Of a DNA stretch of 64,000 nt, positions 5,877 through 6,704 are shown piece by piece; position 1 is the stretch's first letter; each line of letters begins with the position of its first letter. Location: sequence record NC_054920.1. One strand, written 5' to 3'. The position numbers were made by a program, and so were the translations under genes. Below the pieces are notes generated by a model, which did not search any database, had not been told where the DNA came from, and saw only the letters and a program-made list of their open reading frames with translations. This stretch comes from Escherichia phage vB_EcoM_G9062.

Positions 5877-5952
5877 TGGTCGAGGCAGTAGGGATCGAAC
5901 CTACGACCCAGGACTTAGAAGGTCCTTGCTCTTCCTTCTGAGCTATGCCTCG
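5877..5952 (-). tRNA. tRNA-Arg (anticodon TCT), CCA encoded
   Basis: Manual fold: acceptor CGAGGCA/TGCCTCG, D-stem GCTC/GAGC, anticodon loop CTTCTAA, T-loop TTCGATC. Confidence 0.85.
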
Positions 5953-5956
5953 TATT

Positions 5957-6031
5957 TGGCGGACGTGATAGGATTCGAACCTATAACCAATCGCTTAACA
6001 GGCGATCGCTCTGCCATTGAGCTACACATCC
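5957..6031 (-). tRNA. tRNA-Asn (anticodon GTT), CCA encoded
   Basis: Manual fold: acceptor GGATGTG/CACGTCC (one G-U), D-stem GCTC/GAGC, anticodon stem ATCGC/GCGAT with loop CTGTTAA, T-arm ATAGG-TTCGAAT-CCTAT. Confidence 0.75.
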
Positions 6032-6035
6032 AAAT

Positions 6036-6122
6036 TGGTGGGGAGTGGTGGAGTCGAACCACCCGAGTCGCAATGACAATGAATTTACAGTCCACACCGC
6101 TACCTCTACGGGATAACTCCCC
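6036..6122 (-). tRNA. Class II tRNA with long variable arm, most likely tRNA-Tyr (anticodon GTA)
   Basis: Acceptor GGGGAGT/ACTCCCC, anticodon loop CTGTAAA on a stem with two G-U pairs, variable-arm hairpin GTC-ATTGC-GAC, T-arm GGTGG-TTCGACT-CCACC; D-arm is non-canonical. Confidence 0.6.
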
Positions 6123-6131
6123 AAATTAATT

Positions 6132-6206
6132 TGGTGGCCCTGGGTGGAATTGAACCACCATCTGGCGATTATGAGTCGCTTGCTTGAACCTTCCAGCTAC
6201 AGGGCC
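6132..6206 (-). tRNA. tRNA with CAT anticodon (Ile2 lysidine-type or Met)
   Basis: Acceptor GGCCCTG/CAGGGCC, anticodon loop CTCATAA, T-arm GGTGG-TTCAATT-CCACC; T4 tRNA-Ile carries a CAU-derived anticodon as I recall. Confidence 0.7.
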
Positions 6207-6207
6207 T

Positions 6208-6283
6208 TGGTGCTGATTGACGGAATCGAACCGCCGATCTTCTCATTACAAGTGAGTTGCTCTACCTACTGAGCTAAATCAGC
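6208..6283 (-). tRNA. tRNA-Thr (anticodon TGT)
   Basis: Acceptor GCTGATT/AATCAGC, D-stem GCTC/GAGC, anticodon stem ACTCA/TGAGA with loop CTTGTAA. Confidence 0.85.
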
Positions 6284-6288
6284 AAAAC

Positions 6289-6378
6289 TGGCGGAGGCGA
6301 TAGGATTTGAACCTATGAGTCGCCGGAGCGACTGCCGGTTTTCAAGACCGGTGCATTAAACCACTCTGCCACGCCTCC
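6289..6378 (-). tRNA. tRNA-Ser (anticodon TGA), class II
   Basis: Sense strand GGAGGCGTGGCAGAGTGG...CCGGTCTTGAAAACCGG...TAGGTTCAAATCCTATCGCCTCC matches T4 tRNA-Ser from memory. Confidence 0.9.
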
Positions 6379-6380
6379 AG

Positions 6381-6455
6381 TCTCCGTGGCAGGATTTGAA
6401 CCTACGACATTCTGCTCCCAAAGCAGACGCTCTACCAAACTGGGCTACACGGAGT
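6381..6455 (-). tRNA. tRNA-Pro (anticodon TGG), CCA not encoded
   Basis: Acceptor CTCCGTG/CACGGAG, anticodon stem TCTGC/GCAGA with loop TTTGGGA; lies directly upstream of tRNA-Ser like the T4 Pro-Ser dimeric precursor. Confidence 0.85.
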
Positions 6456-6464
6456 AAATTAAAT

Positions 6465-6538
6465 TGGAGCGGATAATGAGAATCGAACTCACATCATCAG
6501 ATTGGAAGTCTGAGGTAATACCATTATACGATATCCGC
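6465..6538 (-). tRNA. tRNA-Gly (anticodon TCC)
   Basis: Sense strand GCGGATATCGTATAATGGTATTACCTCAGACTTCCAATCTGA...GAGTTCGATTCTCATTATCCGCT; anticodon loop CTTCCAA. Confidence 0.9.
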
Positions 6539-6543
6539 AAATT

Positions 6544-6630
6544 TGGTGCGAGAAGTGGGACTCGAACCCACAAGGAAATCATTCCGCAGCATTTTAAGTG
6601 CTGTGCCTTTACCAATTTGGCCATTCTCGC
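6544..6630 (-). tRNA. tRNA-Leu (anticodon TAA), class II
   Basis: Acceptor GCGAGAA/TTCTCGC, anticodon loop CTTAAAA, T-arm GTGGG-TTCGAGT-CCCAC; resembles T4 tRNA-Leu. Confidence 0.85.
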
Positions 6631-6631
6631 G

Positions 6632-6704
6632 CTGGGAATAAAGGACTCGAACCTTTGCATCCTGGAATCAAAATCCAGTGCCTTACCAACTTGGCTAATT
6701 CCCA
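6632..6704 (-). tRNA. tRNA-Gln (anticodon TTG), CCA not encoded
   Basis: Sense strand begins TGGGAATTAGCCAAGTTGGTAAGGCACTGGATTTTGATTCCAG...; anticodon loop TTTTGAT; abuts tRNA-Leu like the T4 Gln-Leu dimer. Confidence 0.85.

Follow-up and report, generated by a model that had tools for sequence, protein, structure and literature searches.

The ten-tRNA cluster of Escherichia phage vB_EcoM_G9062 (NC_054920.1) is very probably the segB-less, RB3/RB1/T2-type allele of the T-even tRNA region, in which tRNA-Tyr and tRNA-Asn are genuine genes and tRNA-Tyr counters the defence nuclease PtuAB. The window analysed, a stretch of 64,000 nucleotides, derives from a Tequatrovirus with 99.8% identity to vB_EcoM-fFiEco06 (MG781190). 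The cluster shares with RB3 the gene order downstream of trna.2 through rnaD and rnaC, with T2 the CAU, Asn and Arg alleles and all but one position of Tyr, and with both the absence of segB. An earlier sequence-only reading of the window had set this arrangement apart from that of T4, but it is not unusual: the RB1/RB3/T2-type allele was published in 2008 (PMC2330249) and is more common than the segB layout of T4. The Ile2-Tyr-Asn-Arg block is present in 374 phage records and full-length segB in 126, making the former about three times commoner.

Over the whole window, ARAGORN calls exactly ten tRNAs, all on the minus strand at 5877-6704, in the order Gln, Leu, Gly, Pro, Ser, Thr, CAU, Tyr, Asn and Arg. 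Manual folding had given precisely this span and order, and both genes on which its claim depended, Asn and Tyr, are among those called. The general tRNA model of Rfam (RF00005, gathering score 29) scores nine of the ten at 59.9-74.1 bits, the exception being Tyr. In the near-identical record MG781190 all ten are annotated, with tRNAscan-SE 2.0 scores from 51.2 (Tyr, the lowest) to 84.7. Within the cluster, ORFs occur only as spurious calls inside individual tRNAs. All ten are genuine tRNA genes, and neither Tyr nor Asn is a pseudogene. In order of transcription, the features of the region are as follows.

6631..6704, minus strand: tRNA-Gln (UUG); ARAGORN, RF00005 67.4 bits.
6544..6630, minus strand: tRNA-Leu (UAA), long variable arm; ARAGORN, Rfam 64.0 bits.
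6465..6538, minus strand: tRNA-Gly (UCC); ARAGORN, Rfam 65.8 bits.
6380..6454, minus strand: tRNA-Pro (UGG), without encoded CCA; ARAGORN, Rfam 63.5 bits, sequence.
6289..6378, minus strand: tRNA-Ser (UGA), long variable arm; ARAGORN, Rfam 62.6 bits.
6208..6283, minus strand: tRNA-Thr (UGU), positions 36-41 UAAUGA; ARAGORN, Rfam 72.8 bits.
6132..6206, minus strand: tRNA with CAU anticodon, Ile2 (lysidine) type by sequence; ARAGORN, E. coli matches, allele comparison.
6036..6122, minus strand: tRNA-Tyr (GUA), class II; ARAGORN, comparative stems, tRNAscan-SE 51.2 in MG781190.
5957..6031, minus strand: tRNA-Asn (GUU); ARAGORN, Rfam 74.1 bits (best of the ten).
5955..5981 (+/- ~1 nt), minus strand: match to the preferred SegB site in the 3' part of tRNA-Asn; motif from PMC2330249.
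5877..5952, minus strand: tRNA-Arg (UCU), T2/RB3-type allele; ARAGORN, Rfam 65.8 bits.
5756..5875, minus strand: homologue of rnaD (T4 'species 2' stable RNA); alignment to T4 rnaD (NC_000866), RB3 annotation.
5610..5749, minus strand: homologue of rnaC (T4 'species 1' stable RNA); alignment to T4, RB3 annotation.
5536..5559, minus strand: intrinsic-terminator-like hairpin and T run; consensus match only.

That all elements lie on one strand is consistent with one transcription unit; the ten tightly packed tRNA genes are followed by rnaD, rnaC and the terminator-like hairpin. The hairpin has 10 bp, seven of them G-C, precedes a T run and would end the tRNA/stable-RNA unit; three terminator-like sites were found where 1.5 are expected by chance. 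A promoter scan upstream of Gln returned two sites against 2.7 expected by chance, none above chance. The coordinates of rnaD were mapped from the alignment to T4 rnaD, and the 'tRNA-???' that ARAGORN reports at 5609-5704 is the 3' tRNA-like domain of rnaC. Where related records annotate small 'hypothetical protein' CDSs across rnaC and rnaD, these are probably spurious.

Relative to the eight tRNAs of T4, tRNA-Tyr(GUA) and tRNA-Asn(GUU) are additional and sit where T4 has segB, as had been proposed. The accompanying picture of the T4 Ile-Arg interval was half right: segB lies there, and the stable RNAs come after Arg, in T4 as in the window. No homology to T4 is seen across the segB interval, which, together with the lack of any ORF but the spurious ones, bears out the claim that no seg gene is present. 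The two extra tRNAs do occupy this interval, but not by simple insertion, as the stretch without T4 homology starts just within the CAU gene and extends to where tRNA-Arg ends (6194 to 5873). The Ile and Arg genes of the window are therefore different alleles from those of T4; tRNA-Arg, for instance, resembles its T4 counterpart only in the anticodon loop and T loop. The CAU, Asn and Arg genes are all 100% identical to those of T2, and the CAU allele differs from the one in T4 and T6. Homology to T6 is lost exactly over Asn and Arg (6031 to 5873), with the breakpoint at the first base of Asn.

The CAU gene had been left as either Ile2 or Met, and only the first alternative stands. In ten of ten rows sampled across the match ranking, its E. 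coli matches are chromosomal tRNA-Ile genes (76-87% identity), and it has G1-C72, an anticodon stem without a run of three G-C pairs and no initiator features. Judged by its sequence, it is an ileX/ileY-like tRNA of the Ile2 (lysidine) type, not Met.

The relation of this allele to SegB has been published. The tRNA regions of RB3, RB1 and T2L (KM606994; AJ884578, AJ884577, AJ880101) lack segB, T2L has tRNA-Tyr and tRNA-Asn genes, and all three phages carry the preferred SegB site of 27 bp within tRNA-Asn (Brok-Volchanskaya et al. 2008, PMC2330249). The motif, GGTTCRANTCC plus CCAR, was mapped to the T2L tRNA-Asn gene (PMC2330249), and the window reads GGTTCGAATCC...CCAA at ~5981-5955, matching it. 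Since cutting has been shown for the identical T2 gene, a co-infecting segB-positive phage would be expected to convert the window allele. T4 lacks Tyr and Asn because the segB cassette fills the interval; a search for Tyr or Asn remnants flanking segB in T4 gave only short, chance-level matches. From that perspective, the presence of Tyr and Asn could be set mainly by selfish SegB homing instead of selection on the tRNAs, the cluster being merely an allele not yet invaded. Besides the preferred site in Asn, this explanation draws on crosses of T4 with T2L, in which T2L tRNA markers are lost and segB inheritance is nearly 100% (PMC2330249), on the T6 breakpoint at the first base of Asn, and on the mosaic distribution of alleles among T2, T4, T6 and RB3. 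It is nevertheless unlikely as the main explanation: the segB-less Tyr+Asn allele is still the majority despite such drive, and homing accounts for gene distribution, not for tRNA function.

tRNA-Asn itself forms a canonical cloverleaf with G73, an encoded CCA, the predicted anticodon loop CUGUUAA and UAAGCG at positions 36-41. It may add decoding capacity for the heavy use of AAU and AAC, or it may supply a copy not open to cleavage by anticodon-arm nucleases such as PARIS AriB, since position 39 is G here and U in the AriB motif UAAUC; either role is only inferred. Rescue of T4 from PARIS required only the tRNA-Lys of T5, and the window encodes no tRNA-Lys, which makes an anti-PARIS role of Asn alone doubtful. 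A phage tRNA-Asn also gave no rescue from PrrC170 (Azam et al.). The suggestion that the extra tRNAs (Tyr GUA, Asn GUU and, in some relatives, His GUG) are all of the GUN/queuosine type, and would thus match colicin-E5-type targets, found no support.

tRNA-Tyr required closer inspection. It has the anticodon and loop, the long variable arm with a stem, and the G1-C72 and A73 of a bacterial-type class II tRNA-Tyr. The acceptor stem is 7 bp, CCA is encoded, and the loop CUGUAAA presents GUA within seven nucleotides, with U33 and a purine at 37. Two G-U pairs (G27.U43 and G30.U40) lie in the anticodon stem. The class II assignment, the loop and both G-U pairs agree with the initial description. 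The variable arm is 15 nt (UGUCAUUGCGACUCG) with a GUC/GAC stem that covaries among 11 homologues (G-C to A-U, U-A to C-G). Recognition by TyrRS relies on A73, G34, U35 and the long variable arm, as well as on G1-C72; all are present in this gene. What the gene lacks is the canonical 2-nt connector (U8, N9): its acceptor and D stems are joined by four nucleotides, UAUC. The same length is found in 71 of 74 unique members of the family, the other three having 5 nt.

This spacing bears on the D arm, which had been described as non-standard. In the usual register the D stem always contains a C×C mismatch, and the arrangement drawn by ARAGORN (U.G, C-G, C×C, C-G) was rejected: it pairs only 28 of 44 cells in 11 named phages, and one to three of four pairs in each of 35 distinct D-region variants from IMG/VR. 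With the register shifted by 2 nt toward the 3' end, four of four pairs form in every case. The D stem of the window gene then reads CCGU/GCGG, and in the 74 unique sequences it takes the form of a regular helix, C-Y-G-U/G-C-R-G, in which 296 of 296 cells pair and C-G covaries to U-A. The arm is thus odd only in the conventional register, and comparison of sequences shows a regular predicted D stem of 4 bp following the 4-nt connector.

One alternative would be that tRNA-Tyr is a decaying pseudo-tRNA, as suggested by its labels in GenBank (tRNA-OTHER or tRNA-Pseudo-GTA in HP3.1, EC121, ZN18, Pet-CM3-4 and others) and by a tRNAscan-SE score that is the lowest of the ten. RF00005 does not win at the locus, and the minimum free energy (MFE) fold of the single sequence shows no cloverleaf (z-score -1.1), which is uninformative alone and calls for comparative analysis. 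ARAGORN also misses the homologue in PG7, Meda, ESCO25 and 8 of 113 IMG/VR contexts. This alternative is effectively refuted by the family as a whole. Across the 74 unique sequences, pairing reaches 98.8% in the acceptor stem, 100% in the D stem, 99.2% in the anticodon stem and 99.5% in the T stem; each stem shows multiple pair types, A73 is present in 74/74 and CCA is encoded in 43/74. Compensatory changes occur in every stem, both among the 11 named phages (from Tequatrovirus, Vequintavirus, Karamvirus, Tequintavirus, Felixounavirus and Phapecoctavirus) and in other, unclassified phages. Because MAFFT misplaced the 5' ends of four of the 11 homologues, stems were parsed by hand and by script. 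Matches of >=95% identity occur in 508 phage records, the identical T6 gene is detected and active, and the low predictor scores are accounted for by the 4-nt connector. The sole surviving Rfam match at the locus, tRNA-Sec (RF01852), reached 30.9 bits, below its cut-off of 47, and was rejected, as tRNA-Sec calls for a UCA anticodon and an 8-bp acceptor stem where this gene has GUA and 7 bp; the match probably reflects the unusual spacing.

With regard to function, tRNA-Tyr is identical to that of T6 (AP018814) at 87 of 87 positions, and to that of T2 at 86 of 87; experiments have shown that the T6 counterpart rescues infection. Doubts that had been raised about whether the gene works are therefore answered in part by experiments on that identical gene (PMC13096335). 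Chihara et al. 2026 (PMC13096335) detected the T6 RNA on northern blots and in sequenced tRNA fragments. It counteracts Septu (PtuAB), a defence that cuts tRNA-Tyr at C48/A49; overexpression or amplification of tRNA-Tyr rescues T6, deletion of the tRNA region sensitises it, and T4, which has no Tyr gene, cannot escape (PMC13096335). With the identical T6 gene the mechanism is largely shown: the PtuAB nuclease of Septu, which is also the effector of retron-Eco7, cuts tRNA-Tyr in the variable arm upon infection, and phage-made tRNA-Tyr raises the supply and restores phage growth in a dose-dependent manner. The window gene would act in the same way. The window phage lacks segB, so the SegB-driven tandem amplification of T6 would be unavailable in cis.

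Whether the phage RNA supplements decoding or serves as bait is less straightforward. It could be mainly a decoy that soaks up PtuAB and spares host tRNA-Tyr instead of decoding UAY. Septu also cleaves T6 tRNA-Tyr, at C48, this RNA seems to be less stable than its host counterpart, overexpression of the phage tRNA partly suppresses degradation of the host tRNA, and the authors leave 'decoy or supplement' undecided (PMC13096335). The 4-nt connector is also unusual for a tRNA that has to fit both TyrRS and the ribosome. A predominantly decoy role is nonetheless quite improbable, given that anticodon or stem mutations abolish rescue by a T5-family tRNA-Tyr, a sign that the tRNA functions in decoding, and that E. 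coli tRNA-Tyr under the strong phage promoter likewise rescues (PMC11555353). The TyrRS identity elements and the A73 and CCA counts given above also speak against bait alone. By analogy with the T5-family mutants, the window tRNA-Tyr would be charged by TyrRS and decode UAY.

A further explanation is pure codon compensation, in which Tyr and Asn, like the other eight, only raise decoding capacity for codons much more frequent in the AT-rich phage than in its host, and have no anti-defence role. The window has 35.9% G+C, and its 55 ORFs use UAU+UAC at 42.5 and AAU+AAC at 58.1 per 1000 codons. In E. coli, Tyr and Asn codons stand at about 28 and 39 per 1000, so the window uses them roughly 1.5 times as often. 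The remaining eight tRNAs decode codons ending in A that the phage prefers, such as UUA (31.6 per 1000), GGA (25.1), AGA (11.7) and AUA (14.9). Compensation of this kind, to the exclusion of defence, is a serious possibility that we judge somewhat unlikely: the identical T6 gene has a defence-specific phenotype, and T4 grows well on ordinary hosts without Tyr and Asn genes. Compensation and anti-defence are not mutually exclusive.

More tentatively, the phage tRNA-Tyr may represent a structurally distinct family, with a 4-nt connector and a short canonical D arm, that has spread by horizontal transfer through six or more genera of virulent phages of enterobacteria and to SSU5-like phage-plasmids and, with Asn(GUU) and often Thr(UGU), may form a portable anti-tRNase module. 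In this rather doubtful reading, Tyr would counter PtuAB-type nucleases and the Asn and Thr variants (G39, G40) would be spared cleavage of the PARIS-AriB type at UAAUC; the two nucleotides added to the connector could change how nucleases recognise the tRNA while TyrRS recognition is kept. A blastn search of E. coli chromosomes for a prophage or host origin of phage tRNA-Tyr gave no match, the hits being to plasmids only.

As a discovery, the cluster carries little weight: the gene set, its order, the relation to segB homing and the function of an identical tRNA-Tyr have all been published, and hundreds of genomes have these genes annotated. The 4-nt connector and the D-stem register of the Tyr family are additions of the present analysis, and the connector explains why this widespread phage family scores poorly with predictors. 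For annotation, the CAU tRNA is to be named Ile2-type and not Met, and the Tyr gene is not to be labelled pseudo. On hosts with Septu or retron-Eco7, a phage with this cluster is predicted to behave like T2 (resistant) or T6 (intermediate), not like T4 (strongly inhibited, no tRNA-Tyr gene).

Among known systems, RB3 (KM606994) matches the window in its set of ten tRNAs and their order, in the rnaD and rnaC that come next, and in the trna.2 flank; it differs downstream of rnaC, where it has e.8-like genes and the window has two phrog_2280 ORFs. T2 counts nine tRNAs: an ORF stands where Thr would be, and another, of 351 nt, follows Arg. T6 shares the CAU tRNA upstream of Tyr, together with the Tyr family, variable arm and anticodon stem, but there segB and a T4-type Arg come after Tyr and Asn is absent, whereas in the window Asn and a T2-type Arg come next. 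T4 (NC_000866) has the Gln-Leu-Gly-Pro-Ser-Thr series in common, the same trna.2-trna.4 flank, and rnaD and rnaC that are ~95% identical; it differs in its own Ile(CAU) allele, segB, another Arg(UCU) allele, no Tyr or Asn, and a total of eight tRNAs. More distantly, the tRNA-Tyr of the T5 family (BF23, SP15, T5), which neutralises retron-Eco7 (Azam et al. 2024, PMC11555353), has the same 4-nt connector and D-stem design, and that of BF23 is 84% identical with an identical 15-nt variable arm. Its acceptor and anticodon stems differ by compensatory changes, its D stem is CUGU/GCAG, it has its own strong promoter, and the surrounding tRNA region is organised otherwise. Finally, E. coli tRNA-Tyr (tyrT/tyrU/tyrV) resembles the phage gene in the loop CUGUAAA, G1-C72, A73, CCA, a 5-bp T stem and a long variable arm that includes GUCAU, where Septu cuts, but only 58 of 89 aligned columns are identical, and the host tRNA has the usual connector of 2 nt, a D stem of 3 bp (CCC/GGG) whose loop is larger, and a variable arm of 13 nt.

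Ten tRNA genes occupy 5877-6704 on the minus strand of the window, and ARAGORN calls them in the transcription order Gln(UUG), Leu(UAA), Gly(UCC), Pro(UGG), Ser(UGA), Thr(UGU), CAU, Tyr(GUA), Asn(GUU) and Arg(UCU). This is exactly the set, order, strand and extent that the sequence-only reading had folded by hand, including the Asn and Tyr genes that it had left for a predictor to judge. Nine of the ten score 59.9-74.1 bits with the Rfam general tRNA model, Asn being the highest at 74.1; at the Tyr locus the match remaining after clan competition is tRNA-Sec, at 30.9 bits, below the family threshold of 47. 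No real ORF was found within 5877-6704, in agreement with the earlier statement that the cluster lacks a seg gene. That reading held in outline and needs correction on the place of the T4 stable RNAs, the extent of the difference from T4 and the Tyr D-arm.

The cluster is a known and common allele of the tRNA region in T-even phages. Identity of the 1.9-kb region to Escherichia phage vB_EcoM-fFiEco06 and to other members of Tequatrovirus is 99.8%, and the fFiEco06 record annotates all ten genes with tRNAscan-SE 2.0 scores (Tyr lowest at 51.2, Asn 81.8). RB3 (KM606994) matches the window in its ten tRNAs and their order, with rnaD and rnaC annotated after them; T2 carries Asn, Arg and CAU genes identical to the window's and a Tyr gene one base different, and the T6 Tyr gene is identical at 87/87 positions. 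The tRNA regions of T2L, RB1 and RB3, all without the homing-endonuclease gene segB of T4, were sequenced by Brok-Volchanskaya et al. 2008, SegB cleavage sites being mapped in T2L tRNA genes (tRNA-Tyr and tRNA-Asn among them) and a preferred recognition site of 27 bp within the gene for tRNA-Asn in all three phages (PMC2330249). Of the phage-collection records, 374 contain 80% or more of the Ile2-Tyr-Asn-Arg block and 126 a full-length segB, and T4's eight-tRNA layout is therefore the minority form. A Tequatrovirus sub-group (Elenatom, HP3.1, wV7, slur02) has an eleventh tRNA, His(GUG), between Asn and Arg and, after Arg, a 351-nt ORF also present in T2. Tyr(GUA), Asn(GUU) and His(GUG), the tRNAs that this slot may or may not hold, all have GUN anticodons. 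Such tRNAs are the queuosine-modified tRNAs and the target set of colicin E5.

The T4 order is Gln, Leu, Gly, Pro, Ser, Thr, Ile, segB, Arg, rnaD, rnaC, so that the stable RNAs come after Arg and not, as had been described, between Ile and Arg. The surroundings of the window cluster are as follows.

8044-8301, internal head protein upstream of the cluster, N-terminus MKTFKEFATK
7734-7979, internal head protein upstream of the cluster, N-terminus MKTYQEFIAE
~5756-5875, minus strand, rnaD (T4 'species 2' stable RNA), about 95% identical to T4, directly following tRNA-Arg
~5610-5749, minus strand, rnaC (T4 'species 1' stable RNA), about 95% identical to T4
5559-5536, strong terminator-like hairpin after rnaC
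5012-5485, minus strand, ORF of 157 aa (phrog_2280) just downstream of rnaC, N-terminus MKSYTQFLNEA
4323-4886, minus strand, ORF of 187 aa (phrog_2280), paralogue of the ORF at 5012-5485, N-terminus MKTYAEFLTEA

The tRNA-like 3' domain of rnaC accounts for an eleventh ARAGORN call, 'tRNA-???' at 5609-5704. Two small 'hypothetical protein' CDSs (FE6_135, FE6_136) drawn over rnaD/rnaC in MG781190, the fFiEco06 record, are probably spurious. Where the window has the two phrog_2280 ORFs, T4 has e.8 directly. The N-termini of these ORFs are similar to those of the two internal head proteins (phrog_8111 and phrog_3499), whose N-terminal motif is the capsid-targeting sequence; judged by sequence, the ORFs may encode further injected internal proteins.

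Tyr and Asn do lie in T4's Ile-Arg interval, as had been described, but the difference from T4 is more than the insertion of two genes. Against T4, homology is lost between 6194 and 5873 (just inside the CAU tRNA through the last base of tRNA-Arg), and against T6 between 6031 and 5873 (exactly the first base of Asn through the end of Arg). The window and T4 carry distinct alleles of the CAU and Arg genes: the acceptor stem of Arg reads CGAGGCA versus GTCCCGC in T4, and the CAU tRNA is unlike T4's in its D, anticodon and T arms. The window alleles are common to T2 and RB3, T6 having those of T4, and the T-even tRNA region is mosaic in its isoacceptor alleles, beyond presence/absence polymorphism. 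The preferred SegB site (GGTTCGAATCC...CCAA) lies within the window Asn at about 5981-5955, and entry of the segB cassette there would fit the homology-loss boundaries against both T4 and T6. The CAU tRNA, previously given as Ile2/Met, is by its sequence relationships of the Ile2 (lysidine, AUA-reading) type and not Met: in E. coli, where it matches a median of two places per genome, 10/10 rows sampled over the match ranking are chromosomal genes annotated tRNA-Ile (76-87% identity), and no initiator features were seen in the gene.

In ARAGORN's conventional cloverleaf the D stem of the Tyr gene reads U.G, C-G, C×C, C-G, with G at position 14, and several GenBank records give the gene as tRNA-OTHER or tRNA-Pseudo / tRNA-Pseudo-GTA, or leave it without annotation. 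Its relatives extend over 1,267 phage records, with these identities to the window gene.

rV5-like Vequintavirus, 96.6%
Karamvirus, 91%
T5-like and Felix-O1-like phages, 82-87%
Klebsiella T4-like phages, 77-80%

Compensatory changes occur in the acceptor, anticodon, T and variable stems of eleven named representatives. Scanning IMG/VR with a sequence pattern yielded 74 unique members; the pattern fixed the 3' D strand, G18-A21 and the anticodon loop, where conservation is by construction, and left the 5' D strand and all other stems free to vary. Two positions 3' of the ARAGORN register, C-Y-G-U pairs fully with G-C-R-G in 74/74 sequences (296/296 cells) and Y-R covaries (C-G in 68, U-A in 6); some covarying sequences keep, as the ARAGORN-register partner, a C that would mispair with A. 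On this pairing and covariation the ARAGORN register is rejected. In the shifted register the D loop is canonical (A14, R15, G18, G19, U20, A21) and the window cloverleaf has an energy of -27.2 kcal/mol versus -23.9 for the one drawn by ARAGORN. The D-arm, earlier called non-standard, is so in the conventional register; in the shifted one its stem is regular, and the unusual part is the acceptor-D connector of 4 nt (UANN), or 5 nt in 3/74. Decay to a pseudogene, as some records imply, is effectively refuted by the intact D stem together with stem pairing over the 74 sequences (acceptor 98.8%, anticodon 99.2%, T 99.5%) and a discriminator A in 74/74, which mark a selected, folded tRNA. This unusual connector length is probably the reason for the poor predictor scores and for the match to tRNA-Sec. 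ARAGORN does not call the homologues in PG7 (L007:1501-1588), Meda (L008:~296-383) and ESCO25 (L012:301-388), nor those in 8/113 IMG/VR contexts; the 4- or 5-nt connector is the likely cause of these misses and of the mislabelled records, and the family is therefore probably systematically under-annotated.

Copies 80-95% identical to the phage-type tRNA-Tyr occur in 269 of 5,426 complete E. coli genomes, always on a plasmid and never on the chromosome. On the two plasmids examined (NZ_CP024264, L017, 3921-4471; NZ_CP117972, L018, 2921-3618), a tRNA array Asn-Tyr-Thr-Ser adjoins DNA ligase, GrxA and an integrase, a setting that looks like an SSU5-type phage-plasmid. The Vequintavirus gene (1501-1587 in rV5_ev168, L005) differs by a compensatory anticodon-stem change and stands in a tRNA array unrelated to the Tequatrovirus one; with the 96.6% identity, this suggests that the gene recently passed horizontally between unrelated lineages of myoviruses. 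The 21 matching 'Campylobacter phage' records, two listed ones being 96.6% (140-kb record) and 85.5% (71-kb record) identical, may be mislabelled coliphage sequences. Among 113 distinct IMG/VR contexts the commonest close neighbour of this Tyr family is Asn(GUU), found within 400 nt in 37 and immediately next to Tyr in 25, followed by CAU and Thr(UGU), an association that is no more than suggestive, as the contexts are phylogenetically related.

The tRNA-Asn has a canonical cloverleaf, G73 and a CCA within the gene. One role would be codon supply: across 55 ORFs of the window, Asn and Tyr codons number 58.1 and 42.5 per 1000, roughly 1.5-fold their frequencies in E. coli. Another would be protection from anticodon-arm nucleases. 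PARIS AriB cuts after UAAUC, between positions 40 and 41 (targets UAAUC/C and UAAUC/A), in the E. coli tRNAs Lys(UUU) and Thr(UGU) and, more weakly, in Asn(GUU), and a U39 change in tRNA-Lys abolishes cleavage (PMC12409363). Positions 36-41 read UAAGCG in the window Asn and UAAUGA in the window Thr. Position 39 is non-U in 23/37 unique phage Asn(GUU) genes collected. T5 tRNA-Lys alone rescues T4 from PARIS (PMC12409363) and the window phage has no tRNA-Lys, which argues against an anti-PARIS role for Asn.

What is new here is minor, namely the register and 4-nt connector of the Tyr family, its breadth over phage lineages and phage-plasmids, and the departures from the AriB motif seen in Asn and Thr; the doubtful-looking tRNA-Tyr itself is already characterised experimentally, as the identical T6 gene. 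Septu PtuAB of E. coli B88 cuts E. coli tRNA-Tyr in the variable arm (C48/A49) on infection, and T6 tRNA-Tyr, northern-blot probed and with fragments sequenced from infected cells, is also cut, at C48, and seems to be of lower stability than its host counterpart (Chihara et al. 2026, PMC13096335). Overexpression of T6 tRNA-Tyr or SegB-driven tandem gene amplification restores T6 plating, and deletion of the tRNA region sensitises T6; T4, without the Tyr gene, cannot escape Septu, and T2 is resistant; 'decoy or supplement' are both offered by the authors (PMC13096335). For a T5-family tRNA-Tyr, an anticodon change or stem breakage abolishes rescue from retron-Eco7, and E. coli tRNA-Tyr under a strong phage promoter also rescues (Azam et al. 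2024, PMC11555353), results that together favour the supply of a working decoder. The Tyr of T5-like BF23 has the same 15-nt variable arm as that of the window.
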